A stretch of DNA of 64,000 bases. It comes from a virus. Lineage: Duplodnaviria; Heunggongvirae; Uroviricota; Caudoviricetes. A program made the translations under genes and the position numbers. The stretch spans positions 1 to 64,000 of the IMG/VR virus record IMGVR_UViG_3300000304_000005; one strand, given 5' to 3'. The notes under the pieces are model-generated. The model did no database searches. It had not been told where the DNA came from and worked only from the letters and a program-made list of their open reading frames with translations. Shown here in pieces: positions 5,970 to 54,500 of this stretch; the stretch's first letter is position 1; every line of letters begins with the position of its first letter.

Positions 5970-5976
5970 GGTGTGA

Positions 5977-6168: not shown

Positions 6169-6279
6169 ACTGGTTCATGATTATATCAAAGACGCAGATG
6201 AATCAAAGCGTTATGTATATGTCGATATCTGTAATCTTATCAATGCATATTTCGATGGATATCTTGAAAAGGAGCAATA

Positions 6280-6906
6280 ATGGGTATTTATATGGATGCG
6301 CTGCCCGGTAGCAGTTCATGCACAATGAATATTATCGACAATGATAAGAATATGTATAAGCTTATGACGGCAGTGGCCGGGGGTTTTGTAAAAGAAAATA
6401 ATAGTAAGATTTGGCTTAATCTCACCAACGGACTTGAACTTGCACCGCATCTTATTGCTAATGATATTCCATTTGATGTATGTCGTTTCCGTTCTTGTTC
6501 TTTCGAGCGTGCTGATTGGGGCGCGGCTATTGATTCTATGCCCGATGATATGTTGATGCGTCTTGCACAGGGTCAAAGGCAGATAATTATTGATTTCGGC
6601 GCAAATCGCCCATGTTCTCGTGCAATGCGTCAGGGTATTCCAATTGCTGTCCGCATGTTGTCTAATGCATGGGGGCTTGATATGGATGAACATATGTGGA
6701 TGTTTGACAGGAGCGGCATGGCTATGCAATGCGATGATGATTTTGCCCGTTGCGCTATGCGTCTCAATAAAAAACAGCGTCGCAGGCTTGAGTATTTCAG
6801 AAAGTATCTGAATACAAATTCTATCAATATCACTTTGCTATGTTCTTCTACGGTTCATGATGGCGATTACAATTATTACGTAGATGTGGCGATGAACAAT
6901 GTCTGA
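6280..6906 (+). CDS. hypothetical protein
   Basis: 208-aa ORF with RBS GGAGCAA. Confidence 0.35.
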   Translation: MGIYMDALPGSSSCTMNIIDNDKNMYKLMTAVAGGFVKENNSKIWLNLTNGLELAPHLIANDIPFDVCRFRSCSFERADWGAAIDSMPDDMLMRLAQGQRQIIIDFGANRPCSRAMRQGIPIAVRMLSNAWGLDMDEHMWMFDRSGMAMQCDDDFARCAMRLNKKQRRRLEYFRKYLNTNSINITLLCSSTVHDGDYNYYVDVAMNNV

Positions 6907-7090
6907 TGAATATAGGATGCTAATAGTCCAATATATATTTATTATGATATTGTGTTTTATGAATAGAATTAATTTTACATCATCATATTTACACAAGATT
7001 CGCAGTAAACAAATGTTGATTATTGTAGGATTGATTCTTATAATTAATGTTATATCGCTAACGTTGATTGCATTATTTTAATTACAAGGA

Positions 7091-7469: not shown

Positions 7470-8270
7470 TTGGAGGGATTTGAAATGAGCAACGTGGCAT
7501 TTGATTATTACAAAAACAATTCTAATAATGCTGTTATTTATGATTTCGTTACACATCAGAAAATTGGTACAGCGACAGATAACAATAATACTTATGATGG
7601 TAATCGCGCAGGTATGAGTTGTGAGGTAGATGCTTTTCGTACAGATGAAGAGATTAAGGCTATGATTGATGTATATGATAAACATATTAATGAAGCATCG
7701 AATAACGAAAAGAAAAAATTAGCATGTCGTAACAAGATGCTGTTCATTATCGGTATCAACATCGGTTTGCGTGCCAGTGATTTGCGTACCCTTACGTGGG
7801 ATTTCTTCTTTGAGGATGTGGGTAACGGAGAACTGAAATTCAGAGATGGATATAATCTTCGTCCTAAGAAAACCCGCAAGACTGGTAAGTATGTGAAGCT
7901 GTATTTCAATGATAGTGTGAAGAAGATTATCAACTGGTATATTTCGATGTACCCGATTAATAACCTTGGCGATTTTATTTTTAAATCTCGCGTTGGTGAT
8001 GATGCGATTACTGTAAACGCTATGTGGCGCGTTATCAAGGATGCTGCGAAGGAAGCGGGTATCAAGCGAAACATTGGCACTCACAGTCTTCGTCGTACAT
8101 TCTGCCGTAGGGCATATGATAATGCCGTAGATAAAAGCAAGGCTCTACTTATCATTCAAAAAATTCTAAACCATTCAAGCCAAGCTGTTACCATGCAGTA
8201 CCTTGGATTGCTGAATGAAGAGATTGAGGATGTGTTCGATAGTATGAACATCGGCTTCGATATGATTTAA
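7470..8270 (+). CDS. int: tyrosine recombinase / integrase
   Basis: C-terminal catalytic signature GTHSLRRTF (HxLR) ... LNHSSQAVTMQY (LGH...Y nucleophile). Arg-containing LRASDLR box upstream. Confidence 0.6.
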   Translation: MEGFEMSNVAFDYYKNNSNNAVIYDFVTHQKIGTATDNNNTYDGNRAGMSCEVDAFRTDEEIKAMIDVYDKHINEASNNEKKKLACRNKMLFIIGINIGLRASDLRTLTWDFFFEDVGNGELKFRDGYNLRPKKTRKTGKYVKLYFNDSVKKIINWYISMYPINNLGDFIFKSRVGDDAITVNAMWRVIKDAAKEAGIKRNIGTHSLRRTFCRRAYDNAVDKSKALLIIQKILNHSSQAVTMQYLGLLNEEIEDVFDSMNIGFDMI

Positions 8271-10344: not shown

Positions 10345-10416
10345 GCGCTTGTGGTGAAATGGTATCACAGCAGACTCATAATCTGTTAGTTCAGGGTCCG
10401 AATCCCTGCGGGCGCA
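10345..10416 (+). tRNA. tRNA-Met/Ile2 (anticodon CAT)
   Basis: Manual fold: acceptor GCGCTTG/CGGGCGC (two G-U pairs), D stem GTGA/TCAC, anticodon stem GCAGA/TCTGT with loop CTCATAA, T arm CAGGG-TCCGAAT-CCCTG. 72 nt. Flanks extend the acceptor helix. Confidence 0.6.
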
Positions 10417-10448
10417 CGTTGCCAAAATGATATTTGATTATGTTACGC

Positions 10449-10522
10449 GCTCCTATAGCTCAATCGGAAAGAGCCAGAGTTTTCTACACTTTAGGTTGCA
10501 GATTCAAGTTCTGCTAGGAGCG
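10449..10522 (+). tRNA. tRNA-Arg (anticodon TCT)
   Basis: Manual fold: acceptor GCTCCTA/TAGGAGC perfect 7 bp, D stem GCTC/GAGC, anticodon loop TTTCTAC, T arm GCAGA-TTCAAGT-TCTGC. 74 nt. Confidence 0.65.
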
Positions 10523-10554
10523 CGTAGTATAATTGCTACAATGTTTAAAGATGT

Positions 10555-10641
10555 GCCGGTGTGCTGGAACTGGAAGACGGAACGGATTCAAAATCCGCGG
10601 GTAGGAATACCGTGAGGGTTCGACTCCCTCCACCGGTACCA
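10555..10641 (+). tRNA. tRNA-Leu (anticodon CAA), type II with long variable arm, CCA encoded
   Basis: Acceptor GCCGGTG/CACCGGT, anticodon loop TTCAAAA, variable hairpin GGTA-GGAA-TACC, T arm GAGGG-TTCGACT-CCCTC, then ACCA. Confidence 0.55.
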
Positions 10642-12012: not shown

Positions 12013-13446
12013 ATGTGTAAAAATATACATGAGCAATATGTTGAAAAACTTAAAAAGGTACATTCAAATATTATTGCTATTGATAAATATATTGATATGT
12101 ACACAAATATTGGGCATAAGTGTTTGAAGTGTGGCTACGAATGGAGCGTTAGACCATATAGTTTACTGCATGCAAAATACGGATGTCCAAAATGTTCATA
12201 TGTAGAAAGAGCGAAAGCAAGAAAGCTTACGCAAGAAGAATATAAAAAACGTGTATTAGAAAGTAATCCAAATGTTGAAGTAATCGGTGAATATATTAAT
12301 GCATCGACTCCAATAAAACATGTATGTAAAAAATGTGGATATGGATTAAACGGAGAATGGCTTACTATACCATCTCATATTATGAATGGGCACGGATGTC
12401 CGGTATGCTCTGGAAATATTATAGGCTCAGCCCCAGAATACAAGAATAGTATTTGGTCACAAGATGAATATCTTAATTTCTTTAAAAACTATATGTCAGA
12501 AGAACAAATGAAGATAAACATGCCAAATAGTCACGCAAAAATAGATGTTATTTGCCCTGTTTGTGGGAAACATAAGAACATATCTCCAAATACATTATGG
12601 AAACAGGGGCTTGGTTGTATTTGCAGTGATGGAGTAAGTTATCCAAATAAATTTATGTTCTCATTCTTAGAACAAATTGGGATTGATTTCAATAGAGAAC
12701 AATCATTTGAGTGGAGTAGCGGGAAAATATATGATTTTTATATTCCGTCTTTGAATTGCATTATAGAATGCAATGGAGAGCAGCATTATAAAGGATGGAA
12801 TAAAGTTAAAAATAGCGCTAAGTTTCAACGATTAAACGATGAAGAAAAATATAAGATGGCTATTGATAATGGAGTAAACAAAGATAAATATATTATTATT
12901 GATTGCAGTCGTTCAAATAAAGATTTTATTAAGCACAATATAGAGCAAAGTAATTTGTTAAATATATTGAATATTAATATATCTGACATTGATATTGAAC
13001 AATGTAATATTTTTGCTACAAGCAATTTAGTAAGACGTATTTGCGATATGTGGAACGATAAGCTTACTATCAAACAAATACAAGAAAAAACAAAAATCGT
13101 TACTGTTCGAGAATATTTAAAAAAGGGAAATGAGCTAGGATGGTGCAACGATTATACCGAAAATGAAGCTCGTAAAAGAGGCGCAAGATATAATAAAGGC
13201 AGATGGGTGAATGTTTATTGTTTGGAATTAAATAAAGTGTTTACATCTATATCAGAAGCGGCAAAACAAACCAAATTAAATTCAGAATCAATACGTATGT
13301 GCTGCTCTGGTAAATGGAATCAATATAATAATCAACATTGGTATTATCTTTATGATAAAGCTATGAAGGATGGAACTGAAATTAAGGGTGCTATTGCACT
13401 TGGTTTAATATCAGAAGAAGAGGCTATAAAACAACTTAACATTTGA
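12013..13446 (+). CDS. homing-endonuclease-like protein (tandem Zn-ribbons, endonuclease core, C-terminal NUMOD-like HTH)
   Basis: Repeated CxKCGY...CPxCS Zn-ribbon units. Core IIECNGEQHY (Vsr/PD-(D/E)xK-like). C-terminal VYCLELNKVFTSISEAAKQTKL resembles the DNA-binding modules of phage homing endonucleases. Confidence 0.4.
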   Translation: MCKNIHEQYVEKLKKVHSNIIAIDKYIDMYTNIGHKCLKCGYEWSVRPYSLLHAKYGCPKCSYVERAKARKLTQEEYKKRVLESNPNVEVIGEYINASTPIKHVCKKCGYGLNGEWLTIPSHIMNGHGCPVCSGNIIGSAPEYKNSIWSQDEYLNFFKNYMSEEQMKINMPNSHAKIDVICPVCGKHKNISPNTLWKQGLGCICSDGVSYPNKFMFSFLEQIGIDFNREQSFEWSSGKIYDFYIPSLNCIIECNGEQHYKGWNKVKNSAKFQRLNDEEKYKMAIDNGVNKDKYIIIDCSRSNKDFIKHNIEQSNLLNILNINISDIDIEQCNIFATSNLVRRICDMWNDKLTIKQIQEKTKIVTVREYLKKGNELGWCNDYTENEARKRGARYNKGRWVNVYCLELNKVFTSISEAAKQTKLNSESIRMCCSGKWNQYNNQHWYYLYDKAMKDGTEIKGAIALGLISEEEAIKQLNI

Positions 13447-14951: not shown

Positions 14952-17213
14952 ATGCTAGTAAATGGTGAGCGAGCGCTTGCATACATCGTAACTATCGATG
15001 ATATTACACCTATTGACGGAGCTGATAATATTGAACTTGCGCGTGTTAGTGGCTGGCGGGTAATTGTTAATAAAGAGCAATTTAAACCCGGCGATGCTGC
15101 CGTCTTCTTCGAAATTGATTCATTGGTTCCTGAAACTGAATGGTCTGAATTCTTGCGCCCAAAGAAATTTCGCGTGAAAACATATCGGCTAAATAAATTT
15201 AAAGTTGTATCGCAAGGGCTTCTTATGCCGATGGATATTCTTCCACAGAATAAAACGTTTAATGTTGGTGACGATGTTACCAACATTCTTGGTGTTACCT
15301 ATTACGTCAAGGAAGATAATTATCGTAAAGCAAAAGACGGCAATCCAAATGAGAAGTATAATCGTATGGCAGCAAAGCATCCGAAGCTTGCAAAGAAGAA
15401 GTGGTTCCGTTGGCTCATGAAGCGTATGTGGGGCAAGAAGCTGCTGTTTGTATTTTTGGGTAGACATATTGATGAGAAGAAGTATAAGTTCCCTGATTGG
15501 ATTAAACGCACGGACGAAGAAAGGTGTGAAAATACACCTTGGATTACACAGTCTAAAGAACCGTTTGTTTGCACGGAAAAAATTGACGGTTGTTTCGATT
15601 ATAATACTAAGATTAGAACCAATGAGGGCCATATTCCAATTGGTAGAATTGTTAATCAGAAATTACCGATTCTAGTTGCATCTTACAATGAAGACAAACA
15701 AATCGTAGAATATAAAAATATTGTTGATTATCATAAAATCAAAGTATCACATCCAGTTCTAAAAATTGGCGTTGGTTATCGTGGACATGGCAACAGAAAT
15801 AAATATATTACATGTACTGATAACCATGAATTTTATACACCGACCGGATGGAAACAAGCGAAGGATTTAAAGCAGGGAGATATCGTATATCATTTTACCG
15901 AGTCTTTCCCGTATGAAATTAAGCAACTTATTCTAGGAAGCTTGCTTGGAGATGCATCTATTAATGCAAACGATAAAGACGGTGGATATAGGTGTGTTCA
16001 TTTTACACAATCAGACAAGCAAATTGCTTATTTTAATTACAAGAAGAACCTTCTTGGGAAATATGCGTTGGGAGAAAGGACAAGGACAAGCGGATATGGA
16101 AGCTTGATGCATGATATGCATACTACTACAAATCTTGAGCTTAATAAATTCTTAAATGAACATTGCATGAAAAACGGGAAGAAGTTTGTTACCCAAGAAT
16201 GGTGCAACGAACTTGACCCTATGGGCCTAGCCTTCTGGTATATGGATGATGGAAGTATTGCTAACCGCGATAACGACAAGCTTGGATGTAGAATTCATAT
16301 TTCAACAAATGGGTTTTCTCTACAAGAGAATGAAACGTTGGCAAATATGCTAAGAGACAGGTTCGGCATCGAGGCTACGATTGGAGACAAAGAAACGTAT
16401 AAGGGATATACGCTTATTCTTGATGTGAAAAATACCGAAAGGTTCTGTTCGTTGATTGCTCCATATGTATGCAATAGTATGAAATACAAACTCCCCAAAA
16501 AGTATCAAGATATAAAGTGCTGCTATGATAACATTTGCTTTGATTCTGGTATGAACATTGTTGAAGTTGATATTAAGTCCATAGAGAATATTGATGAACA
16601 CAAAGAATATTTCTTTGACCTTACGATTGAAGATAATCATAATTATTTTGCACAGTCTATCCTTGTTCATAATTGTTCCACAACGGTGTTTCTAGACGCA
16701 ACAAAACGTAAGCACGATTTTGGAGTGTGCTCTAGAAATGTTAGGCAAATAACACCAGATATAGAGAATTACCATACTAAATCTTCTGGAACAAATGTGT
16801 ATTGGGAAATGGCATTGAAGTATGATATGCAAAATGCACTTGAAGATATCGCAAAGAAATATGATGTTCAACGTGTTGTGCTTCAGGGAGAGACATATGG
16901 AGAAGCCATTCAGGGAAATCCATTGCACCTAAAGTATCGTGATTTTGCCGCATTTAATCTTGTGTTTGATGGCGAGCGACTAGGTTCAATTCAGGCAAAG
17001 GAAATTCTTGATGATTACAAGATTCCCTTTGTTCCAATTATTGACGATGCATATTATATGCCAGACACATTTGAAGAGCTTAAGAAACAAGCAGACGGTA
17101 AGAGCACAATCAATCATAAATGTCTACGCGAAGGATTCGTTTATCGTAGCTATGATGGTAAGCAATCTGCTAAAAACGTTAGTGTAAAATATCTGCTTAA
17201 GCAAAAAGATTAA
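14952..17213 (+). CDS. RNA ligase (DRB0094/Rnl-like nucleotidyltransferase) interrupted by an in-frame intein
   Basis: N-terminal LAYIVTIDDITPIDGADNIELARVSGWRVIVNKEQFKPGDAAVFFEIDSLVP matches the RNA-ligase family N-domain. Ligase motif I CTEKIDG is followed immediately by the intein Cys1. Extein resumes at CSTTVFLDATKRK. Confidence 0.6.
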   Translation: MLVNGERALAYIVTIDDITPIDGADNIELARVSGWRVIVNKEQFKPGDAAVFFEIDSLVPETEWSEFLRPKKFRVKTYRLNKFKVVSQGLLMPMDILPQNKTFNVGDDVTNILGVTYYVKEDNYRKAKDGNPNEKYNRMAAKHPKLAKKKWFRWLMKRMWGKKLLFVFLGRHIDEKKYKFPDWIKRTDEERCENTPWITQSKEPFVCTEKIDGCFDYNTKIRTNEGHIPIGRIVNQKLPILVASYNEDKQIVEYKNIVDYHKIKVSHPVLKIGVGYRGHGNRNKYITCTDNHEFYTPTGWKQAKDLKQGDIVYHFTESFPYEIKQLILGSLLGDASINANDKDGGYRCVHFTQSDKQIAYFNYKKNLLGKYALGERTRTSGYGSLMHDMHTTTNLELNKFLNEHCMKNGKKFVTQEWCNELDPMGLAFWYMDDGSIANRDNDKLGCRIHISTNGFSLQENETLANMLRDRFGIEATIGDKETYKGYTLILDVKNTERFCSLIAPYVCNSMKYKLPKKYQDIKCCYDNICFDSGMNIVEVDIKSIENIDEHKEYFFDLTIEDNHNYFAQSILVHNCSTTVFLDATKRKHDFGVCSRNVRQITPDIENYHTKSSGTNVYWEMALKYDMQNALEDIAKKYDVQRVVLQGETYGEAIQGNPLHLKYRDFAAFNLVFDGERLGSIQAKEILDDYKIPFVPIIDDAYYMPDTFEELKKQADGKSTINHKCLREGFVYRSYDGKQSAKNVSVKYLLKQKD
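15591..16673 (+). mobile_element. intein (361 aa) with LAGLIDADG homing-endonuclease domain
   Basis: Starts CFDYNTKIRTNEGHIPIGRIV (A block). Ends ...SILVHN followed by extein +1 Cys. Two LAGLIDADG motifs LILGSLLGDASI and LAFWYMDDGSI. Confidence 0.6.
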
Positions 17214-28203: not shown

Positions 28204-28992
28204 ATGAAAGATAAATATTCCGATAGACTCGGTGAAATACAGTTGATGCATTGTGGCGATTACGCAAAGATAATTGAATATAATAGTTCTCTTGACGTGG
28301 TTGTTCAATTTCAGGATGAACATGGTTATATATGCCATGTAGAATATTGGAACTTCAAGAAAGGTCATGTAAAGAACCCCTATCATAAAAATAAATATGG
28401 TGGCTATGTTGGAGAGGGAAAATATAAATCCACAGAAAATAGAAAAGGTACTTATATATATAATGCTTGGATAAGAATGCTAGAAAGAAGTAAAAACAAG
28501 AAGTTTAAAGAGAAATTTCCTGCATATAAAGACGTAGATTGCTGTGATGAATGGCTGTGCTTTCAAAACTTCGCTGAATGGTATGAAGAAAATTATTACG
28601 AAGTTAATGGTCAATCAATGGAGGTAGATAAAGACTGGTTGCATCAAGGCAACAAAATATATTGTCCTGAATTTTGTTCTGTTGTTCCAAGTATAATTAA
28701 CTCATGTTTGCTGACACATGAGAAAACCAAAGGTAATCTTCCGATTGGCATTTCTAAAACTACAGGCAATAAATATAAGGCAAGAATAAGTATCGAAGGA
28801 AAAAGAAAAGATTTAGGAGTTTATGTTGATTTGATTGATGCATTAAATGCGTATAAGAAAGCAAAAATAGATTATGTAAAATATTTGGCAAATAAATATA
28901 GGGACGTACTTCCAAAAAAAGTATATAACCAAATGATACATTTTGATAAAAGATTCGAGGTGGAATTTCCTGAGTATGCAGCGATACATTAA
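28204..28992 (+). CDS. HNH-AP2 type homing endonuclease
   Basis: C-terminal AP2-like NKYKARISIEGKRKDLGVYVDLIDALNAYKKAK. N-terminal region paralogous to 19850. Confidence 0.45.
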   Translation: MKDKYSDRLGEIQLMHCGDYAKIIEYNSSLDVVVQFQDEHGYICHVEYWNFKKGHVKNPYHKNKYGGYVGEGKYKSTENRKGTYIYNAWIRMLERSKNKKFKEKFPAYKDVDCCDEWLCFQNFAEWYEENYYEVNGQSMEVDKDWLHQGNKIYCPEFCSVVPSIINSCLLTHEKTKGNLPIGISKTTGNKYKARISIEGKRKDLGVYVDLIDALNAYKKAKIDYVKYLANKYRDVLPKKVYNQMIHFDKRFEVEFPEYAAIH

Positions 28993-31900
28993 TTTTCATA
29001 AGCACACACATTACTCGAATTTGCGAAGTCTTGATTGTATCTCGAAACCAGAAGATTATATGAAACGTGCGGTAGAATTAGGGCATAAAGAATATGTAAC
29101 TACTGAACATGGATTTCAATCAAACATTTATGAGGCATATACACTTTGCCAGAAGTACGGACTTAAATGCGTATACGGAGTCGAAGCGTATTATGTAGAT
29201 GATATATACGATAAAACTTCTCGTGCTAACTACCATATTGTTTTGATTGCTTTAACTGAAAAGGCACGCAAAGAAATCAATAAAATTATGTCCATTGCAA
29301 ATACAGATGGATTTTATTATAAGCCGCGTATTGACCTTAAATGCCTATTATCGCTTACACCTACAGATACAATTGTAACTACCGCATGTGTTGCATCTCG
29401 TATGTTTAAAGATGGCTGGGAAAAGAAATTTCTTATTCCCGTCTATAATCATTTTAAAGATAATTTTTATCTCGAAGTGCAAAATCATAACGAATCTATT
29501 CAGATTGAACACAATAAAAAGCTATTACAAGTTAAAGACAAATATGGTATCAAGCTAATTCATGCAAACGATAGTCATTATATTTATCCTAAAGATGCAA
29601 AATATCGTGATTTGTTTTTAAAAGCCAAAGGAATCGTGTACGAAGATGAAAGTAACTTTATACTTGATTATCCTGATTATGACACTGTTGTTCAACGATA
29701 CAAAGAGCAAGGCGTGCTTAATGACGAACAGATTCAAGAAGCATTAGATAATACGTTAATTATCGACAAGGCAGAAGGAATTACTATCAATAAAGAATTT
29801 AAAATTCCAAAAATATCAGATGGAGATAGTAATAAAGCTTTACGTAAAATTTTACGGAATGCGTGGAAAGAAGAAAAGAAAAAGATTTCTACTGATAGAA
29901 TTAAAGAATATGAAAACGCTATTTATTATGAAACGAAAATCGTAAAAAATTGTGGAATGGCGGACTACTTTATTCTCGACCATGAAATTGTAAAAAAGGC
30001 TGTGAATGAATATGGTGCGGTTCTAACAAGAAGCGGTCGTGGCTCTGCTGTATCATTTTATATCAACCATCTTCTTGGTCTTACCGAAGTTGACCGTCTG
30101 AACTCGCCAATCACCCTATATCCAACTAGGTTTATGAGCGCAGAACGAATTCTTTCATCCCGTTCATTACCGGATATTGACCTTAATTTTGCAGATGTAA
30201 AACCCGTTATTAAAGCGTCGAAAGATATTTTAGGCGATGATGGCATTTATTATATGATTGCTTATAAGCCATTACAGGAAGCGTCGGCATTTAGACTTTG
30301 GTGTAAAGCTATCGGAATGCATATTGATGAATATAACGATGTAGCTAAGAATATGGATTCATATATAGAAGATAGAAAATGGGGAAAAATAATTGAAGAT
30401 AGCAAGGTATTCAGAAAAGTTATTGAAAGTGTAGCTCCATCTCCATGTTCCTTTTTGCTTCTAGATAAACCCATATCTGAAGAAGTTGGCCTTATCAAAG
30501 TAGGAGATGAAATTTGCTGTGCTATCGATGGTTACAACTGTGATGTATATAAGTTTCTTAAGAACGATTATCTAACGGTTTCTGTATATCGTATTATTTC
30601 TATGGTGTATGAATTAATTGGTAGACCAATCGATGATATTGAAACACTTCTATCAAATTGCGATGATAAAGTATGGGATATCTATGCAAAAGGCTTAACC
30701 ACTACGGTTAACCAGTGTGATTCTGATATCGGCAAGAATATGTTGAAGCAATATCAGCCTAAAACACTAGCAGAAATTTCAGCATGGGTAGCTGCGATTC
30801 GTCCGGGGTTTGCTTCTTTGCTTAATAATTTTCTTGAACGCAAGCCATATTCTACAGGTGTAGATTCTCTTGATGAAATTCTTGAAGATTCATTCCATTA
30901 TTTGTTATACCAAGAGTCTATCATGAAATATCTTGTTTGGTTAGGTATCGAGGAAAAGGGAACATATGATATCATCAAGAAGATTGCCAAAAAGAAATTC
31001 ACGCCACAAGAGCAAGAAGAATTACATAAGAAACTCGAAGAAGGTTGGGTAAAAAAATTAGGAACAAATGAAGGGTTTGCACAAACATGGCAGGTCGTTC
31101 AGGATGCTGCAAGGTATTCTTTTAATGCATCACATTCTCTCAGTGTAGCAATCGATAGTCTTTATGGAGCTTATTTAAAATCTCATTATCCGCTTGAATA
31201 TTTTACAGTTGTGCTATCCCTATATGCAGACGATAACGATAGAACTCCAAAATTGATTTCAGAATTACCGTATTTTGGAGTATCTTTGAAGCCTATTAAG
31301 TTTGGTAAATCAAGCGCTGATTACACGATGGATAAGAATACCAACTCAATCTATCGTGGTATCGCGTCTGTTAAATATTGCAACGCTCAAATTGCAGATG
31401 AACTTATGCAGCTATCGAAAACCCACTATGATTCATTCATCGATTTGCTTTACGATATCGACAACAAAACCTCGGTCAATTCCCGACAATTAGAAATTTT
31501 AACGAAGTTGAATTTCTTTTCTGATTTTGGTAAGAACAAACGCCTTCTTCGAATCATAGATATCTATGATAAATTTGCAAATGCAAAAATCATTTCGAAG
31601 AAGAAGCTTGATGGCCTTGATATTTCAGAGTTTCTAATTAAAAAATATGCCGGTAAAGAAACTAAATCTCAATATCGAGAGCTTGACAATGCCGGACTGA
31701 TGAAGGAACTGTGCAATCGAATCGATGATGATTCTATGAATATCGTAGACCAAGTGAAGGCTGAGAACGAATATCTTGGAAGCGTAAGCTATACTAATCC
31801 AAAAGTAAAAGGCTATTACTGGATTGTGACAATGTTTAATGATTCTCGTAACTCAACTAGACCATATGTAACTATTCGTCGTATATGTAATGGCGAAGAA

Positions 31901-32083
31901 ATTCAAACTAGAATCAAGCGGGCTTCTGTATTTAAAGAACAACCGTTCGGTTTATATTCTATTTTGCGAATGGACAAGATTGTATATGAGCCGAAGAAAA
32001 AGAAAATGCCTGATGGAACTTGGGTTGATAGCGATGTAACAGAGCCTATCTTGTGCGGATATGAAACAATCAAGAAGGAGTAA
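28943..32083 (+). CDS. dnaE: DNA polymerase III alpha subunit (PHP + polymerase core)
   Basis: PHP domain HKHTHYSNLRSLD...TTEHG...GVEAYYVDD. 1046 aa. Confidence 0.7.
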   Translation: MIKDSRWNFLSMQRYINFHKHTHYSNLRSLDCISKPEDYMKRAVELGHKEYVTTEHGFQSNIYEAYTLCQKYGLKCVYGVEAYYVDDIYDKTSRANYHIVLIALTEKARKEINKIMSIANTDGFYYKPRIDLKCLLSLTPTDTIVTTACVASRMFKDGWEKKFLIPVYNHFKDNFYLEVQNHNESIQIEHNKKLLQVKDKYGIKLIHANDSHYIYPKDAKYRDLFLKAKGIVYEDESNFILDYPDYDTVVQRYKEQGVLNDEQIQEALDNTLIIDKAEGITINKEFKIPKISDGDSNKALRKILRNAWKEEKKKISTDRIKEYENAIYYETKIVKNCGMADYFILDHEIVKKAVNEYGAVLTRSGRGSAVSFYINHLLGLTEVDRLNSPITLYPTRFMSAERILSSRSLPDIDLNFADVKPVIKASKDILGDDGIYYMIAYKPLQEASAFRLWCKAIGMHIDEYNDVAKNMDSYIEDRKWGKIIEDSKVFRKVIESVAPSPCSFLLLDKPISEEVGLIKVGDEICCAIDGYNCDVYKFLKNDYLTVSVYRIISMVYELIGRPIDDIETLLSNCDDKVWDIYAKGLTTTVNQCDSDIGKNMLKQYQPKTLAEISAWVAAIRPGFASLLNNFLERKPYSTGVDSLDEILEDSFHYLLYQESIMKYLVWLGIEEKGTYDIIKKIAKKKFTPQEQEELHKKLEEGWVKKLGTNEGFAQTWQVVQDAARYSFNASHSLSVAIDSLYGAYLKSHYPLEYFTVVLSLYADDNDRTPKLISELPYFGVSLKPIKFGKSSADYTMDKNTNSIYRGIASVKYCNAQIADELMQLSKTHYDSFIDLLYDIDNKTSVNSRQLEILTKLNFFSDFGKNKRLLRIIDIYDKFANAKIISKKKLDGLDISEFLIKKYAGKETKSQYRELDNAGLMKELCNRIDDDSMNIVDQVKAENEYLGSVSYTNPKVKGYYWIVTMFNDSRNSTRPYVTIRRICNGEEIQTRIKRASVFKEQPFGLYSILRMDKIVYEPKKKKMPDGTWVDSDVTEPILCGYETIKKE

Positions 32084-38799: not shown

Positions 38800-39465
38800 A
38801 TGGTTGATTTCCAAATCATTAAAAAAGATGGAACACTAGAACCATACAACGAACAAAAGATTATCAATGCCTGTAAGAAAGCAGCAGCAAGAGCGCTTGA
38901 TGATTTGTCTGATGATGACTATCAGAATGTGTGCGATGCAGTAATGAGCTATATTACAGAGCATTACGATAATGGTTCTGATATTCCTGTCAAAACGATT
39001 CATTCAATCGTTGAACAAACACTAGTTGACCTATATCCTAAGACTGGCGAAGCATACCGTGAATACCGTAATTACAAAGTTGACTTTGTAGCCATGCTTG
39101 ACGATGTATATCAGAAGAGCCAGTCAATTCGATACCTCGGAGACGTAAGCAACGCAAACACAGATTCATCTATGATTTCTACGCAGCGCTCGCTTATCTA
39201 TGGACAGCTAAATAAGAATCTATATCGTAAGTTCTTTTTGAATAAAGATGAGCTTCAAGCATCAAATGATGGATACATTTATATCCATGACATGAAAGAC
39301 CGTCTCGACGGATTTAACTGTTGTTTGTTTGATATGGGGAACGTTGTTAAAAGCGGATTTGAGATGGGCAACGTCTGGTATAACGAGCCTAAGACTCTTG
39401 ATGTTGCATTCGATGTCATATCAGATGTGACTATGAGCGCGGCAAGCCAACAGTACGGTAAGTAA
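38800..39465 (+). CDS. nrdD: anaerobic ribonucleoside-triphosphate reductase, exon 1 (ATP-cone plus start of catalytic domain)
   Basis: ATP-cone MVDFQIIKKDGTLEPYNEQKIINACKKA. ORF ends at a stop right after ...QQYGK, at an intron-like boundary GGTAAG|TAAAAATTGCC. Confidence 0.6.
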   Translation: MVDFQIIKKDGTLEPYNEQKIINACKKAAARALDDLSDDDYQNVCDAVMSYITEHYDNGSDIPVKTIHSIVEQTLVDLYPKTGEAYREYRNYKVDFVAMLDDVYQKSQSIRYLGDVSNANTDSSMISTQRSLIYGQLNKNLYRKFFLNKDELQASNDGYIYIHDMKDRLDGFNCCLFDMGNVVKSGFEMGNVWYNEPKTLDVAFDVISDVTMSAASQQYGK

Positions 39466-39770: not shown

Positions 39771-40271
39771 GTATGGAAACATATGTCTTGGTTGGGTTTT
39801 ACAATTCCACGAGTCGAGACTATTCTTGCTCCTTATGCAGAGAAGTCATATAAGAAGTATTATGATGAATATTTCGATATCGTGAATGAAGATAGCGACG
39901 AAGCAAAAGAGAACGCAGAGAAGTATGCTGATAAAAAGGTATATCGAGATATGGAACAGGGCTTCCAGTCTTGGGAGTATCGATTCAATACTGTTGGTTC
40001 TTCTCGTGGCGATTATCCATTCATTGCCATCTCGTTTGGCATTGGTACAAGCAAGTTCGAGAGAATGGCAAGTGAGGCAGCGCTACGTGTTCGTATGGGC
40101 GGGCAGGGTAAGCCGGGATTTAAGCGTCCAGTCCTATTCCCTAAGCTAACATTCCTTTACGATGAGAATCTTCATGGCGAAGGAAAAGAGCTGGAATATC
40201 TTTTCGATATCGCTATTGAGTGCAGCAGCAAGACAATGTACCCTAAACAAAATTGGGGCTTGGCAGCGTAA
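39771..40271 (+). CDS. nrdD: nrdD exon 2
   Basis: ORF NTVGSSRGDYPFIAISFGIGTS...KRPVLFPKLTFLYDENLHG, class III RNR-like. Frame opens after TAA at 39765. Confidence 0.5.
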   Translation, partial: VWKHMSWLGFTIPRVETILAPYAEKSYKKYYDEYFDIVNEDSDEAKENAEKYADKKVYRDMEQGFQSWEYRFNTVGSSRGDYPFIAISFGIGTSKFERMASEAALRVRMGGQGKPGFKRPVLFPKLTFLYDENLHGEGKELEYLFDIAIECSSKTMYPKQNWGLAA

Positions 40272-41351
40272 GCTACCAAGAAAACTTCGTGAACCTGTAA
40301 TTTCAGGGTGTGTAACTCACGTTAGTAACCGTAGGAAATGACGGCTAAGAGTTATGCTAACAGGGGAATGTTCATTTTATATGAACGCTATCCTGTGGAG
40401 TTTAATCATTATAATCTTGTTTCGATTTACTTGGAGGCAAGATGGATGATAGAAAAATATACTATGTTTATAAATGGATAAGATTAGACATGAATCAAGT
40501 GTTTTATATTGGAAAAGGACACGGTAATAGATATAAAGATAGAAGTATGAGAAATAGGTATTTCAACAATGTTGTCAATAAAGTTGGAATGGATAATATA
40601 GTAATCAAATTTATAGAAACCGATTTAGACGAAGAAACTGCGTTTGAAAAAGAAAGATATTATATTAAATATTATAAAGAGCTTGGACATAGACTAACAA
40701 ATTTAACTAGCGGAGGTGATGGCAGTTCAGACTGGTACTCTTTTCTATCAGACGAAGAAAAAGAGCGGCATAGAGAGATATCTAAAAGTTTCTTGGGCAG
40801 ACACCATACAGAAGAAACGAAAAAGAAAATGAGTAAGTCTATGACTGGTCTTAAACACCGTTTCACAGATGAATCTCGTCAAAGACTGATAGATAGCGTA
40901 AAATCTAGGCCAGCTCCGTTTAAAGGTAAACATCTTTCTGAAGAAACAAAAGAAAAAATAAGACAAACTCGCTTGGGAACACAAAGCAAAAATGCTAAAG
41001 AAGTTTTGGTACTGAATACAGATTACGATATTATTGACAACATTCGTTCAAGAGCAGATACATTTAAGAAATATCAATATGTAAAACAACATGAAATTAG
41101 AAAATGTCTTGAAGGTAACTCAAAGCTTTTCGATACTAAAAATTGTTTGTTTTATCAAAATATATGTTTCATTTATAAACAAGATTATGATAGATTAAAT
41201 TCTCAATCGACTATCGAAACGGTAGCATAAGACGTAGCTTATGTGAGAACGGAGTAGAGTACACATAATGTGAAATTCATTGTGTGGAAGTGCGAAGAAT
41301 CCAATGACAGTTCATTGGATTATGATATAGTCAAAGCCCAACACGTATTGT
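40272..41351 (+). mobile_element. group-I-like intron 2 in nrdD carrying a GIY-YIG homing endonuclease ORF
   Basis: 1.08-kb insert. 5' region shares GGGTGTGTAA...ATGCTAACAGG motifs with introns 1 and 3. Contains a free-standing HEG. Boundaries approximate. Confidence 0.45.
40442..41230 (+). CDS. GIY-YIG homing endonuclease (intron-encoded) with NUMOD3 repeats
   Basis: IYYVYKWIRLDMNQVFYIGKGHGNRY matches the GIY-YIG signature. Repeated HTEETKKKMSKSMTGLKH / LSEETKEKIRQTRLG NUMOD3-like motifs. Confidence 0.65.
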   Translation: MDDRKIYYVYKWIRLDMNQVFYIGKGHGNRYKDRSMRNRYFNNVVNKVGMDNIVIKFIETDLDEETAFEKERYYIKYYKELGHRLTNLTSGGDGSSDWYSFLSDEEKERHREISKSFLGRHHTEETKKKMSKSMTGLKHRFTDESRQRLIDSVKSRPAPFKGKHLSEETKEKIRQTRLGTQSKNAKEVLVLNTDYDIIDNIRSRADTFKKYQYVKQHEIRKCLEGNSKLFDTKNCLFYQNICFIYKQDYDRLNSQSTIETVA

Positions 41352-41714: not shown

Positions 41715-42701
41715 GTGCGAATAGCGATATTCGATAAAACGTGCAGAGCTTCGCTTTCTCCTTGGTACGTCCGTGGTGGAATGGAACCGGCAGACGATGA
41801 TGATTATCCTGTGTTTGAAGGGCGCTGTAATTTGGGAGCGATTTCTCTACATCTGCCAATGATTCTTGCTAAGGCTCTCCAAGAGAATATGGATTTTTAT
41901 GAGGTTCTTGACTATTATCTTGAGATGATTCGTAACCTTCACAAGAGAACTTATGCGTTCCTTGCAGAGAAACCTGCATCTACGAATCCGCTTGCCTTTA
42001 TGCAAGGTGGCCTACTAGGCGGTACGCTTAAAGCAGATGAGAAGATTGGCAAGCTGCTTCCTCCGATGACGATGAGTTTTGGCATCACGGCATTGAACGA
42101 ACTACAAGAGCTATATAACGGCAAGTCACTTGTTGAAGATGGTGAATTCGCTCTTGAAGTGATGCAGTATATCAACGACTATGTAAACCGCATCAAGAAG
42201 GAAGACAATATCCTGTGGGCTGTTTACGGAACTCCTGCCGAGTCGCTATGTGGATTACAGGTAGAACAATTCCGTAAGAAGTATGGCATTGTCAGGGGAG
42301 TATCAGACCGAGAGTATGTTTCTAACTCGTTCCACTGTGGAGTTTGGGAGGACATTACTCCAATTCAGAAGCAAGACTTAGAGGGTAGATTCTGGAATAT
42401 GTTCAATGGTGGTAAGATTCAATATTGTCGCTATCCTGTTTCATACAACCATGAAGCACAGAAGACCCTTGTTCGTCGTGGTATGCAGAAGGGATTCTAT
42501 GAGGGGTGCAACCTAGCGCTTTCATATTGCGAAGATTGTGGTTATGAGCAGCTTGAAATGGATGTATGTCCTAAGTGTGGTAGTGAAAACATCACGCAGA
42601 TTGACCGCATGAACGGGTATATTGGATATACTAAGATTCATGGTAAGAGTCGTTATAACCATGCTAAGGTTGTAGAAATCAAAGAACGCAAAAGCATGTA
42701 G
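41715..42701 (+). CDS. nrdD: nrdD final exon (C-terminal half with Zn-ribbon and glycyl-radical motif)
   Basis: CEDCGYE...CPKCGSE Zn ribbon. Glycyl radical motif DRMNGYIGYT (RxxGY). The listed start is a GTG. The true exon begins around 41700-41715. Confidence 0.6.
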   Translation: MRIAIFDKTCRASLSPWYVRGGMEPADDDDYPVFEGRCNLGAISLHLPMILAKALQENMDFYEVLDYYLEMIRNLHKRTYAFLAEKPASTNPLAFMQGGLLGGTLKADEKIGKLLPPMTMSFGITALNELQELYNGKSLVEDGEFALEVMQYINDYVNRIKKEDNILWAVYGTPAESLCGLQVEQFRKKYGIVRGVSDREYVSNSFHCGVWEDITPIQKQDLEGRFWNMFNGGKIQYCRYPVSYNHEAQKTLVRRGMQKGFYEGCNLALSYCEDCGYEQLEMDVCPKCGSENITQIDRMNGYIGYTKIHGKSRYNHAKVVEIKERKSM

Positions 42702-48544: not shown

Positions 48545-49243
48545 ATGCTAAAAGGAGATGATATGGATAATGATAATGATATATATAAAATAAATTATTA
48601 TATATATATGACACAAAATATTATTACTAATAAAAAATATATTGGTAAAAGAATGTGCAGATGCAACATTGAAGATGATAAATATTTAGGAAGCGGTAAG
48701 ATATTAAAGCAAGCAATTAAAAAATATGGCAAAGAAAACTTTAAAAAAACTATACTAGAAATCTGTAGCACAGAAGAACAATTAAATCGCAGAGAAAAAT
48801 ATTGGATAAAACATTTTAACGCCTGTGCCAGTGATTCATTTTATAATATAGCAAAAGGCGGCGATGGCGGAGATACGTTTACACACTTGCCTATAGAAGA
48901 ACAAAACAGAATAAAAGAAATACAAAGTCAATGTAGTTCAGGGCATAATAATCCTATGTATGGCAAACACCATACACAAAGCACCAAAGAAAAAATACGT
49001 CTTGGACAGCAAAAATATTTAAATTCTAATAAAAAATGGGGTAAATCAGGAATGACAGGAGAATTAAATTCTTTGTCGCAAGATATTAAATGCCTCGAAA
49101 CAAATAAAAGTTTTCATGGTATAAGAGAAGCTTCTCGAATAACAGGAATACCAGCTCCTAATATTATCAGGTCATTAAAAAGCAATGGATACTATTCAGC
49201 TGGTAAATTAAACGGAAACAAATTACATTGGGTGTATTGTTAA
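48545..49243 (+). CDS. GIY-YIG homing endonuclease with NUMOD3
   Basis: YYIYMTQNIITNKKYIGKRM...YLGSGKIL matches GIY-YIG. NPMYGKHHTQSTKEKIR is a NUMOD3-like motif. Confidence 0.55.
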   Translation: MLKGDDMDNDNDIYKINYYIYMTQNIITNKKYIGKRMCRCNIEDDKYLGSGKILKQAIKKYGKENFKKTILEICSTEEQLNRREKYWIKHFNACASDSFYNIAKGGDGGDTFTHLPIEEQNRIKEIQSQCSSGHNNPMYGKHHTQSTKEKIRLGQQKYLNSNKKWGKSGMTGELNSLSQDIKCLETNKSFHGIREASRITGIPAPNIIRSLKSNGYYSAGKLNGNKLHWVYC

Positions 49244-50732: not shown

Positions 50733-50772
50733 AGGGATATAGCCAACATAGGCTATATCCCAATTCTTTTTT
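50733..50772 (+). terminator. rho-independent terminator ending the plus-strand block
   Basis: GGGATATAGCC-AACAT-AGGCTATATCCC hairpin followed by AATTCTTTTTT. Confidence 0.6.
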
Positions 50773-51097: not shown

Positions 51098-51370
51098 TTA
51101 GCCATTTACATCACCAGCAATCATAGTACCCAATTCCGCTATTGCTAACATTATTTCCGCATTCTGCGAATCGCTTTGCTCTTTTGCCATTTGAAGATAT
51201 TCATCGATAGAATACTGAAACTCATGATACTCATAAACAACAGCATCTTTCATTTCTTCATCGGTAATTTCCAATTTTTTAATGTCAGTATGAACATAGA
51301 CAACATTTTTATTGATAACAAAAGGAAGCGCTTGCTCCGCTGAGCCTTGAACTATACCGATATCTTTCAT
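51098..51370 (-). CDS. hypothetical acidic protein downstream of DGR RT
   Basis: 90-aa ORF abutting the RT stop. Strongly acidic, so unlikely to be Avd. Confidence 0.35.
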   Translation of the reverse strand: MKDIGIVQGSAEQALPFVINKNVVYVHTDIKKLEITDEEMKDAVVYEYHEFQYSIDEYLQMAKEQSDSQNAEIMLAIAELGTMIAGDVNG

Positions 51371-51372
51371 GA

Positions 51373-52419
51373 TTACCTTCCCTTCTTAATGTTTTCACGA
51401 TAGTATTTATTAATATATGGTACCAATGGAGCAGAATATTTTTCATATAATCTTCTGCTATTGCACCATTTTAACCAACCTGCATAGCTGTTGAATGTAC
51501 AGTAATCAGAGAACGTCAATTCATCTCGATGTTTGTACATATTCAGCATCTTTCGTTTATATCTCTGGCATGTTCCTTTTCTTAATAAAATAAAATTATT
51601 AAATGTTCTATATCCAACAAAATCAACACCTCTAATATTTGTCGGGAAGACCTGCCAGTTAGGTTTCATTTCAAGTTTTAACTCGTTGTGTAGATATTCT
51701 TGCATCTTGACAAGTTGTTTGTGAAGAATATCTTTTGATGCATTGAACACAACCATATCATCCATATATCTAATAACATATTTACATTTAAGCTCTTCTT
51801 TAAGCCAATGGTCGAAATATGCTAGATAAAAATTGGCAAGATATTGTGATATATAAGAACCGATTGGAACCCCAACATCACCATGGCTATCTATAATCAA
51901 ATCAAGCAACCATAATAACTCAGGGTCTTTAAATTTCTTCCTAAGCAATTGCTTCAAGATATCATGGTCTATGTTTTGATAAAAATGCCTAATATCTATT
52001 TTCAAACAATACATAGAATTCTCTTCATCTTTAATGCTCTTCTTCGTTTTCTTCAGAGCATAATGAATCCCTCTATCTTTCAATGACGCACATGTAAAAT
52101 CAGTAAATACCTTATTAAACACATGTTCGATTTGCAACAGAATAGCCCATTGAATTATTCTGTGTGGATAATATGGAAGTTTCCATAACTCTCTTTCCTT
52201 GCCCTTATCATTAATTACCGATACAGTATAATCCTGCATTGAAATATGATATGTATGCTCTTTGAGCATCTTTTGAATCTTTTTCATATAGGGCATAGGA
52301 TTCTTATCAATTTTTTTAACAGCTCTATAAAACTGTTTATCTTTGCGTGCATTTTGATGTGCCGCATATAAATTTTCTATAGAATAGATTTTCGAATACA
52401 CATTTCCTAGTCTTTTCAT
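51373..52419 (-). CDS. diversity-generating retroelement reverse transcriptase
   Basis: RT motifs including YMDDMVVF (YxDD) and the DGR-specific motif 4 variant PIGSYISQ (IGxxxSQ instead of group II QGxxxSP). 348 aa with no maturase/X domain. Adjacent TR/VR pair. Confidence 0.7.
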   Translation of the reverse strand: MKRLGNVYSKIYSIENLYAAHQNARKDKQFYRAVKKIDKNPMPYMKKIQKMLKEHTYHISMQDYTVSVINDKGKERELWKLPYYPHRIIQWAILLQIEHVFNKVFTDFTCASLKDRGIHYALKKTKKSIKDEENSMYCLKIDIRHFYQNIDHDILKQLLRKKFKDPELLWLLDLIIDSHGDVGVPIGSYISQYLANFYLAYFDHWLKEELKCKYVIRYMDDMVVFNASKDILHKQLVKMQEYLHNELKLEMKPNWQVFPTNIRGVDFVGYRTFNNFILLRKGTCQRYKRKMLNMYKHRDELTFSDYCTFNSYAGWLKWCNSRRLYEKYSAPLVPYINKYYRENIKKGR

Positions 52420-52792
52420 ATATTTCCTTAATATTTATTACGTTTTCTTCTCGAACTTTCGAATCCCAATAATGAGATTATATATATGGCATACATGTTT
52501 AAATCAAACACGCTACAACAACTTATACTCATTGATTTAAGATGTATAGCAATCTATATCATCATCATTTTTTTTCGTCGTGTTGATATGTTATATTCTA
52601 CTCCCCTTCTTTACAGACAACATTAAAAGAACAAATCAACACAATATATATTGAAACCTACTAATACAATTTTATTGAAAAATATGTTTTGCCAAGAGGC
52701 ATGGCATAAATACTCGTACTGATTATCTATCATCGGGATTTAAGGAATAAAGTCCCGACAATAAGCAAAATAAAAATAAATAAATTAACGTA

Positions 52793-52921
52793 ATGAAGTA
52801 GGTGAGTGGTGATATTCGAATTCACACCTGAAGGTGAATTGTTCACATTCAACTGGAAAGTGCCTGCATTAGTACCATTATTCCAATAGCTGCCGAAATT
52901 AGGAACGTGACCAGTGTACAA
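52793..52921 (-). repeat. DGR template repeat (TR)
   Basis: 129-nt repeat aligning with the 3' end of gene 53175..54500. All of >20 mismatches are TR-T (sense-strand A) versus VR C/A/G on the given strand. Confidence 0.7.
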
Positions 52922-53174
52922 ATTAGCCCAATAAAAAAATACTAATCAATACAACTCCGTTGGAATTAATAATTTTATTGTTACTAAAACAATTATTATT
53001 ACTATCAACAGCGTCTAAAGAAATAACTCACGGAGATATATCTCAGACAGAAACCACCGTTTTCATATTTATGCCTATATAAAACCATAATTTATTGCAT
53101 GGCATTACCATGCCATATAGCTTTAATTAAAATAAAATAAAATTTAAATTAAATTACTGCTTTGAAGTTATTCT

Positions 53175-54500
53175 TTATGCGGGGTTAGAAGAAAACTTCT
53201 TATAAAGCAGGCGAGCGGTGATATCCGAATACACACCTGAAGGCGAACTGTTCACACTCAACAGGAAAGCGCCCGCACCAGCACCAAGATGCCAACAGCC
53301 GCCGAAACCAGGAACGCGACCAGCGTCCAAACGAGCCCAATCTGTATAGTATGTGGAAGCCGAGCCACCTACAGCTTTCGCTACAAAGCCACCATGAGTA
53401 GTGCCGACAATCTCGCTCATATAATTACCAATATCCGAAGTAACACCGCTAGGAACGCTATATTGATAATTTGTTCCATTAGCAACACCATCAAAATTCT
53501 TATAATAAGTTAAGATATTACGAGACGCATCAGAATAGCAACCATCTACCCAAGCTAGGCAATTACCCCAGAAATCCTCAATACCAAGCCATTTGATATG
53601 TGCAGTGTTACTAGCAGTACCATACATAAATCCAAGTGAATCTGTAGCACCGGTATTCGTCTTAGCGCTTGCGCCAACGTAGCCCTGACCAAGAGCGGCT
53701 TGACCGTCACGGGTCTTATAAATCAACAAGAACAGACATTGCAAAAGCGTCATAGGATAGAATGAGAAAAGTTCATATCCATCACCACGAGCATTCGCAT
53801 ATGCACGAGAATTGATAAGACTGATATCAGTTGTCGGCTCTGCACCGGAAATGGAATAAAGCTTATTGCTGTCTACATGACCAAGATAAGCGCCGATATA
53901 AATCTTATCGCAATCACCCAAAGTCTCTTTACTATGGGCAGCATAACAATATGTATCAGCATCGGGGTCATTTGTAACCCAAATATAATGATAATCATCA
54001 TCCATAGTCATCTTATAACCCATCTTGGGAATTTCAACCATAACATCACCAGCGGTGGTAGAGTTAATTGTAGATTCCGTACCATCTTCCTTTTGAGCAT
54101 AGTTATTAGGATTCAGATAATACTCAACCTGACCATCTTTAAGCAGACATGGCTTGATATCTCTAAATAACGGCGTATCCTTCCACTTATCCCAACCCGG
54201 ACTCATACCTTCTGCATCGCCAATATATTCAACAGCAGTAGCAGGGTCGCTTGTATCTCGCCTAATACGCACGCCATAATATTTCTTGCCAGTACCGGCA
54301 ATCATATCAACTTCGGTCTTGCTGTAAACCTCTAGGTTTTCCCTAGCATCATCAGCATTAGAAGCACCGGTTCCACCCTTGCTAACAGGTAGAACACCGG
54401 ACACATCATTCATTGTATGGGTATGGCCTTTAGGAGAACCCCAGTTCTTAATAAGCTCTGATAGCAAGGTAACACCCTTTTGTCCCATATACTTACCCAT
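53175..54500 (-). CDS. DGR target: tail-fibre-like receptor-binding protein with C-terminal variable (C-type-lectin-like) region
   Basis: N-terminus has tail-fibre-type HTHT/NxxGxLP motifs. The C-terminal ~45 aa (GRVPGFGGCWHLGAGAGAFLLSVNSSPSGVYSDITARLLY) is the diversified copy of the TR translation (GHVPNFGSYWNNGTNAGTFQLNVNNSPSGVNSNITTHLLHY). Confidence 0.65.
   Translation of the reverse strand: MGKYMGQKGVTLLSELIKNWGSPKGHTHTMNDVSGVLPVSKGGTGASNADDARENLEVYSKTEVDMIAGTGKKYYGVRIRRDTSDPATAVEYIGDAEGMSPGWDKWKDTPLFRDIKPCLLKDGQVEYYLNPNNYAQKEDGTESTINSTTAGDVMVEIPKMGYKMTMDDDYHYIWVTNDPDADTYCYAAHSKETLGDCDKIYIGAYLGHVDSNKLYSISGAEPTTDISLINSRAYANARGDGYELFSFYPMTLLQCLFLLIYKTRDGQAALGQGYVGASAKTNTGATDSLGFMYGTASNTAHIKWLGIEDFWGNCLAWVDGCYSDASRNILTYYKNFDGVANGTNYQYSVPSGVTSDIGNYMSEIVGTTHGGFVAKAVGGSASTYYTDWARLDAGRVPGFGGCWHLGAGAGAFLLSVNSSPSGVYSDITARLLYKKFSSNPA
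53203..53331 (-). repeat. DGR variable repeat (VR)
   Basis: Direct alignment to the TR. Substitutions are confined to positions that are adenine in the TR sense strand (Asn AAY codons become Gly/His/Leu/Ser/Tyr/Asp/Ala). Confidence 0.7.

Follow-up and report, generated by a model that had tools for sequence, protein, structure and literature searches.

Diversity-generating retroelements (DGRs) that target tail-fibre genes are known by the thousand in phages. To our knowledge only one DGR, that of BPP-1, has been dissected mechanistically, and it needs the accessory protein Avd. Among curated DGRs, by contrast, 29% display the accessory-free architecture A, and lineage 3 is devoid of avd (Wu et al., 2018; PMC5758913). 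The DGR of crAssphage LMMB has been placed in this lineage, with the layout TG-VR(IMH)-TR(IMH*)-RT: target gene with its variable repeat (VR), template repeat (TR), then reverse transcriptase (RT), the repeats ending in the initiation of mutagenic homing (IMH) element and its counterpart IMH* (PMC7290462). Here we analyse a cassette of the same general form, located at 51,098–54,500 of a 64,000-nt stretch of tailed-phage DNA (Caudoviricetes; positions 1 to 64,000 of the IMG/VR record IMGVR_UViG_3300000304_000005), which we call the window. We read it as an active or very recently active DGR, organized as target(VR)-TR-spacer-RT and lacking Avd, a reading to which we give a probability of about 93%.

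The repeat pair, the reverse transcriptase and the target protein

The cassette closes the minus-strand tail module: the target gene with its VR is followed by the TR, a spacer, the RT gene and a 90-aa open reading frame (ORF). A preliminary description of the locus, based on the letters of the sequence and its ORFs, had placed a 129-bp TR at 52793–52921 and a VR at 53203–53331. The repeat is real, with somewhat different limits. A repeat search gave ungapped copies at 52793–52932 and 53202–53341, that is, with an offset of 409 nt where the earlier VR coordinates implied 410. Base-by-base comparison then defines a TR of 137 nt, 52932..52796, reaching 11 nt further in the 5′ direction than proposed, and a VR of 137 nt, 53341..53205. 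The VR covers codons ~387–432 of the target, as expected from the proposal that it forms the last ~45 codons of a 441-aa gene, and the ORF-track entry at 52730..52921 is indeed the TR read in the frame of the VR. A gap of 242 nt separates the target ORF from the TR copy, and a scan of the window that ignored adenine positions found no second target, leaving a single VR.

The differences between the copies are what makes the signature of adenine-specific mutagenic homing. Over 140 nt they differ at 27 positions, 25 of them at TR adenines as read in the sense direction (minus strand), where the VR has G in 19 cases, C in 3 and T in 3; with 38 A in the 140 nt, the hypergeometric probability of such a bias is about 5e-16. 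Inside the 137-nt repeat the proportion is 25 of 26, while 13 of the 38 TR adenines are unaltered in the VR of the window genome. It had been claimed that every difference falls on an adenine, and this was slightly too strong: T>G at 52918 and C>T at 52795 do not. The latter sits one base beyond the 3′ end of homology and is fixed in seven close relatives, the same site having A in the TR and T in the VR of a further related genome, L088; the former is weighed below. Eight relatives have no mismatch in the 137 nt other than at adenines (100%).

There are 10 AAY codons in the TR, which has no codon that a change at an adenine could turn into a stop codon. As anticipated, its Asn codons have become Gly, His, Leu, Ser, Tyr or Asp in the VR, to which Arg must be added; Ala, also listed initially, comes from Thr codons (ACT). 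One fully variable codon has been lost from the window genome, since the TR codon at 52890..52888 reads TAT there and AAT in eight relatives. Opposite it the VR has TGT, as would be expected if the T is copied faithfully.

The RT gene (52419..51373, minus strand) codes for a basic protein of 348 aa (pI 9.6). Its sole Pfam domain is RVT_1 (E = 2e-19), it matches phrog_1423 (E = 6e-113), and the closest relative of solved structure is bRT, the DGR enzyme of Bordetella phage (8ub7; E = 4e-31), with which it aligns over its full length (residues 3–325). The segment VGVPIGSYISQ faces VGIPIGSLTSQ of bRT and both enzymes have YMDD, so that the assignment to the DGR type, initially made from the IGxxxSQ motif (PIGSYISQ), holds. 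RTs of group II introns are weaker matches (LtrA, E = 8.5e-12), those of retrons weaker still (about 1e-8 or worse). NCBIfam is without a model for DGR RTs; matches to its group II, Drt and retron models are all far below cut-offs, with 105 bits against a required 300 for the group II RT/maturase model TIGR04416, in line with the earlier remark that the protein has no maturase domain. Rfam searches gave neither intron nor retron RNA, be it in the region at E up to 1 or in the whole window at the gathering score. We rejected a group II intron identity on these grounds (no maturase-level score, no intron RNA), and likewise a retron identity (much weaker relatives, no retron RNA match). The company that such enzymes keep is telling: a same-strand VR-TR-RT cassette with at least 75% of mismatches at adenines was found at 63 of 81 loci, made of the 80 nearest RT relatives in IMG/VR together with phage Perkons, and at most of the loci that gave no such cassette the sequence ends upstream of the RT.

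The target gene (54500..53175, minus strand) codes for a tail-fibre-like protein of 441 aa that matches phrog_5302, 'tail protein' (E = 9.5e-63), next to an upstream neighbour that carries phage-tail repeats. Its N-terminus has fibre repeats, and residues ~70–437 form a domain resembling C-type lectins and formylglycine-generating enzyme (FGE). An AlphaFold (AF2) model built on 71 homologues has a mean confidence (pLDDT) of 87.7, mostly 94–99 per 10-residue block over residues 70–437, with a dip to 75–89 around residues 331–350. The C-type-lectin/FGE fold predicted at the C-terminus was recovered: the best matches of the model in the PDB are variable proteins of DGRs, TaqVP (5vf4; E = 2e-11), Mtd (1yu0–4; E = 5e-5) and TvpA (E = 1.5e-3), followed more weakly by C-type-lectin folds of the FGE/EgtB type. 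All three share with the target both the fold and a C-terminal location of the variable residues; sequence identity is only 10–15%, and the whole-chain TM-score stays at 0.43–0.49 because the N-terminal domains differ. A homologue of the target, 56% identical, is encoded at 5001–6296 of locus L089, part of a contig of 141 kb, and has neither RT nor TR in its vicinity, which tells us that the same C-type-lectin fibre tip also exists undiversified.

Diversification among related genomes

The closest database relative of the target represents a 90%-identity cluster of 69 member sequences. Sixteen cluster proteins that we aligned are near-identical save for columns 388–427, where they differ at codons with TR adenines. 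A VR-specific pattern scan of JGI metagenome contigs gave no match; from ENA and Logan assemblies we recovered the DNA of eight further genomes, and the nine genomes have nine distinct VRs. Metagenomes in which such relatives occur include ERZ24773554, ERZ28614777 and ERR4096352. Polymorphism was counted over eight genomes that are 96.4–98.1% identical outside the VR. Within it, 28 of the 38 sites opposite TR adenines are polymorphic (74%), 23 of them with three or more alleles, against 2 of the 99 sites opposite other bases (2%). Mean identity between the eight genomes at TR-adenine sites falls to 52%. The TR, at 2 of 137 sites (1.5%), has the lowest rate of the cassette; the RT gene reaches 8.5% and the target gene outside the VR 11.8%. 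No genome compared has a broken RT ORF. The expectation of the preliminary description, namely that polymorphism in related genomes would be confined to VR positions facing TR adenines, is thereby borne out.

Two features of this comparison speak of direction. The non-adenine sites of the VR vary less than the remainder of the very gene in which they lie, as fits repeated overwriting from a conserved template. Further, changes of the TR at bases other than adenine have been copied into the VR of the same genome: this is the case of G>T at 52926 in L083, and of a whole block of changes in L088. Such mirrored changes are precisely what directional transfer from TR to VR predicts.

The bases written at adenines are not the same everywhere. 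At the 22 adenines of AAY codons the VRs of the nine genomes have A in 36% of cases, G in 38%, T in 14% and C in 13%. At isolated adenines, flanked by C or G, the VR base is almost always G. Nine TR adenines (between 52799 and 52915 in the TR, 53208 and 53324 in the VR) are G in all nine VRs, and this includes three synonymous sites. Synonymous isolated sites, three in number, count 24 G and 2 A out of 26, with no C or T, and differ from the AAY sites with p = 6e-8 (Fisher's exact test), the genomes not being fully independent. One database variant keeps Thr at codon 410, so that sites with isolated adenines can be written. Perkons and L088 have the same A>G excess, and two other lineages of the clade have balanced spectra. 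In BPP-1, by contrast, the commonest misincorporation gives A>T (PMC7826257).

Several causes might be invoked for this excess of A>G. It is possible that the RT follows an insertion rule that depends on context; it is also conceivable that isolated G.T mismatches are repaired to the resident G, or that the TR of an AT-rich genome drifts from G to A in the manner of a ratchet. A bolder proposal, which we think rather unlikely and put forward with corresponding caution, would recognize two classes of adenines in an Avd-less TR, those of AAY codons randomized to four bases and isolated ones converted to G almost deterministically. The cause would be either a context rule of the Avd-independent RT or repair to the resident G, with an RNA of the RT-17/RT-18 type (see below) as a self-priming scaffold. 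We know of no description of a context rule or repair step of this kind for BPP-1. Were the proposal true, it would be testable in the cultured phage Perkons.

An Avd-less class and the signals around the repeats

The absence of Avd rests on several searches. Using BPP-1 Avd as a query, phmmer found nothing at E up to 10 among all stop-to-stop ORFs of the window and of 86 loci, and among the 19 families that Pfam recognized in 40 small ORFs of the window none is of the Avd type. There is no ORF between VR, TR and RT in the window; at the 81 loci the ORFs upstream of the RT are target C-termini or spurious, and in relatives the VR and the TR are 200–340 nt apart, too short a distance for an avd gene. 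For want of an avd gene, the element takes its place in a class of DGRs already known to lack it. A DGR may have Avd or alternatively HRDC, MSL or CH1 as its accessory protein, but need have none, since 29% of curated DGRs go without (PMC5758913). With target, TR and RT on one strand and no accessory gene, its sequence organization is that of architecture A1. RT similarity and architecture make lineage 3, as in crAss-like phages, its most likely affiliation.

The likeness to crAssphage LMMB and to architecture A1 extends to the one-strand TG-VR(IMH)-TR(IMH*)-RT order, to the absence of avd and to a tail-collar or tail-fibre target, with RTs ~38% identical; moreover the VR ends in an xRL motif, as do CLec3 VRs. 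The differences are in the phage, here a ~126-kb one of Clostridia type and not a crAss-like or Bacteroides phage, and in the repeat ends: IMH and IMH* are reported to be identical in LMMB (PMC7290462), and their putative counterparts here differ at three A/G positions. With the BPP-1 DGR (mtd-avd-TR-brt) the element shares a tail-fibre target whose VR is C-terminal and borne by a C-type-lectin fold, an AAY-rich TR subject to adenine-specific mutagenesis, a GC-rich VR 3′ end unlike that of the TR, and an RT that aligns over its whole length (E = 4e-31) with IGxxxSQ and YMDD in common. It differs from it by the lack of avd, by a TR that contains many isolated adenines, including at third-codon positions, and by a spacer of 376 nt between TR and RT (~140 nt in BPP-1) that does not match Rfam RT-10.

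Perkons, a Psychrobacillus phage (MT325768; our locus L081), is the closest cultured phage with the same cassette. The layout target-TR-RT is identical, the RT and the target are 53% and 33% identical, respectively, all 32 mismatches are at TR adenines, with an A>G excess of 24 out of 32, and the spacer is similarly RT-17-like. By contrast, the Perkons spacer is 163 nt long, a long perfect hairpin comes directly after the VR, and a different gene follows the RT. At 4555–7077 of this locus ORF176 carries the VR (5479–5615), the TR lies at 5701–5837 and ORF175 is the RT. This DGR is unannotated: the record says just 'reverse transcriptase', and a 2026 paper on the phage makes no mention of a DGR.

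The ends of the repeats fit a putative IMH/IMH* pair, by analogy with BPP-1. The last 14 nt of the VR, CCGCTCGCCTGCTT (53205..53218, minus strand), are GC-rich and do not vary among nine genomes. Three fixed A/G differences, one of them synonymous, set them apart from the TR end, CCACTCACCTACTT (52796..52809, minus strand): the TR adenines 52807, 52803 and 52799 are G in nine of nine VRs, and the last variable position is 52810. Further downstream, 61 nt past the stop codon of the target, a hairpin GCAUGG-UAAUG-CCAUGC (53113..53097, minus strand) keeps its pairing in L088 by two compensatory pair changes, the stem there reading GCGCGG/CCGCGC. It could be a terminator, a target-site stem-loop, or both. 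Directly 3′ of the TR another hairpin, UCGGGA ... UCCCGA (52733..52758, minus strand), keeps its stem in L088 with a loop cut to four U, and Perkons has a 7-bp hairpin at the equivalent place.

Few parts of the cassette are as conserved as the first ~160 nt 3′ of the TR (3.1% of sites polymorphic), and a candidate structured spacer RNA would lie at 52591..52706 (minus strand). It displays a P1 hairpin UGCC-UCUU-GGCA (52701..52690), AAAAC, and a UAGUAG core (52663..52658). On the correct strand it matches Rfam RT-17 with 26.5 bits (gathering score 40.4; E = 0.007 for a 561-nt search) and RT-14 with 28 bits (gathering score 48.1). Position, strand, P1 hairpin and UAGUAG core all fit the RT-17, RT-14 and RT-18 motifs, which the spacer resembles without being a certified member of any of them. 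The Perkons spacer matches RT-17 with 31.4 bits, and its P1 covaries with that of the window (UUGGC/GCCAA for UGCC/GGCA). Consensus folding of four spacers yielded a weak structure that was in part misaligned (covariation term +0.62), and folding of the single sequence a z-score of −1.2. Among 15 sampled relatives, RT-18 stands above its gathering score in 10, located 3–90 nt upstream of the RT start. These ten motifs (L003, L004, L006, L009, L019, L036, L051, L052, L069 and L076) lie downstream of the TRs of their loci, and RT-18 is probably the spacer RNA of these Avd-less DGRs. In BPP-1 the RT-10 motif is found between TR and brt, and it has been speculated that other RT motifs belong to other DGRs (Weinberg et al., 2017; PMC5737381).

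What of the acidic ORF of 90 aa (51370..51098, minus strand; pI 4.25) that comes directly after the RT? One may imagine that it is an accessory factor replacing Avd, in the manner of CH1 of the Avd-less lineage 3a, a protein described as acidic and restricted to DGRs without avd (PMC5758913). A small acidic ORF (pI 4.1–4.7) does follow the RT directly in 65 of 73 related loci. When one such ORF was used in tblastn it matched 7 phage records, from Faecalibacterium and Butyrivibrio phages, and in all 6 that are annotated the match abuts an RT gene. The window protein is linked to this RT-adjacent family weakly, by phmmer (E = 1e-3) and a shared phrog_18126; in a tblastn search against phages it had no match of its own. 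Its closer homologues (49–55% identity), however, have a tail-fibre gene immediately upstream, a ~40-aa ORF and holin/lysin genes downstream, and no RT in 8 kb of sequence; Perkons has another gene after its RT, and CH1 is a protein of 160–169 aa. After the RT-free tail-fibre homologues had been found we abandoned the accessory role as our favoured explanation, and now hold it to be improbable. A simpler scenario, in which the insertion of TR and RT separated a fibre gene from the companion that usually follows it, accounts for the synteny of RT and ORF; the sequence evidence makes the 90-aa protein probably a tail-fibre companion and not a component of the DGR. Loci L099–L104 (around 4001–4270) display a block made of a tail fibre, a ~90-aa ORF, a ~35–44-aa ORF and holin/endolysin, in prophage-like contigs that include a Lachnospiraceae metagenome-assembled genome.

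Probable activity of the element, its phage and its significance

If we follow the example of BPP-1, the RT would bind a transcript combining the TR with the structured spacer downstream of it, and cDNA synthesis would begin at the 3′ end of the TR, within the IMH*-like segment. The enzyme, presumably acting without Avd, would copy U, C and G faithfully and misincorporate opposite A. The resulting cDNA would replace the homologous VR of the tail-fibre gene, the GC-rich IMH-like end marking the recipient without being itself overwritten. Some 1e16 variants of the peptide would be possible in this way on the face by which the C-type-lectin domain at the fibre tip binds its ligand, presumably enabling the phage to switch receptors and host range.

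A number of observations weigh against this picture of a working DGR. BPP-1 needs Avd and none is detectable here, which makes the enzymology an extrapolation. The T>G mismatch at 52918, at a base that is not adenine, is private to the window genome and absent from its eight relatives. The hairpin that follows the VR is ~90 nt away from its end, and that of BPP-1 only 4 nt away, while the spacer matches to RT-17 and RT-14 remain below the Rfam gathering scores. Six internal TR adenines are G in nine of nine VRs, and the spectrum as a whole is skewed, A>G making ~70% of changes in contrast to the A>T preference of BPP-1. One could therefore suppose that the cassette is a fossil, now inert, and that the VR differences are old polymorphisms inherited with the genomes. 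The private change in the VR and the AAY codon lost from the TR would suit this view, as does the fact that the comparison covered assembled consensus genomes rather than reads within one population. It is nevertheless very unlikely. Genomes that are 96–98% identical elsewhere have a mean identity of only 52% at TR-adenine sites, with three or more alleles at 23 of them; the RT ORF is intact throughout, and the TR is the most conserved segment of the cassette. The polymorphism of non-adenine VR sites, 2% where the remainder of the gene has 11.8%, requires that the TR go on overwriting the VR.

An alternative of a different kind would dispense with the DGR altogether, ascribing the hypervariable VR to ordinary positive selection or recombination and the RT to an unrelated retroelement, be it a group II intron, a retron or a defence RT. 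It is true that hypervariability is common in receptor-binding tips, and that the RT does match group II, Drt and retron models weakly. The variation, however, is restricted to positions occupied by A in a non-coding second copy 409 nt away. The weak matches are far below cut-offs and unaccompanied by intron RNA, bRT is by far the best solved relative, and the same cassette recurs with 63 of the 81 RT relatives. This alternative is effectively refuted, and an active or very recently active DGR is the reading that we retain.

The window is part of an AT-rich (~36% GC) tailed-phage genome. As far as ~50.6 kb it has replication genes, encoded on the plus strand; the tail module is read from the minus strand, between 64 kb and 51 kb. 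A bidirectional terminator-like hairpin (50734..50761) marks the junction between the minus-strand tail/DGR operon and the plus-strand genes. The phage is large: a contig of 126 kb from JGI encodes an identical 90-aa protein. When the cassette was compared by megablast with 50,697 phage records, no near-identical DNA came up. A DnaE-type polymerase (28943–32083, plus strand) has 60% identity with its counterpart in Clostridium phage c-st, 50% with the phiCD211 enzyme and 44% with that of Perkons. An endolysin (2254–3420, plus strand) with three SLH domains suggests a host with an S-layer, and a tyrosine recombinase gene is found at 7470–8270 (plus strand). Taken together, the SLH endolysin, the recombinase and the c-st-like polymerase point to a large temperate phage of Clostridia type, as far as gene content can tell.

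To judge from its sequence, this genome is also rich in selfish endonucleases. The gene nrdD, for anaerobic ribonucleotide reductase, is spread over three plus-strand ORFs, 38800–39465 (ATP-cone and positions 2–104 of the NRDD profile), 39783–40271 (profile positions 105–239) and 41715–42701 (positions 263–560), and a NUMOD3 homing-endonuclease ORF (40442–41230) lies inside the second gap. The split looks like the work of two introns; an Rfam search of the whole window at the gathering score gave no group I intron at nrdD. A 753-aa ORF (14952–17213, plus strand), whose N-terminus resembles RNA ligases and whose residues 323–517 form a LAGLIDADG endonuclease domain, may be an intein-containing protein. 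Other free-standing homing endonucleases, one HNH and one GIY-YIG with NUMOD3, are encoded at 12013–13446 and 48545–49243 (both on the plus strand), and a cluster of three tRNA genes is present at 10345–10638 (plus strand).

As regards the meaning of the element, it is a good example of the described Avd-less class, not a new kind of system. Its value lies elsewhere. Many near-identical genomes with different VRs amount to a clean natural experiment, which reveals ongoing diversification and gives its spectrum, after selection, site by site; in that spectrum, what is written at an adenine seems to vary with the neighbouring sequence. RT-17 and RT-18, orphan motifs of Rfam, occupy the very place where the spacer RNA of a DGR is expected. 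Finally, we know of no study of the mechanism of Avd-independent DGRs, and the homologous cassette of Perkons could serve as a model for them.

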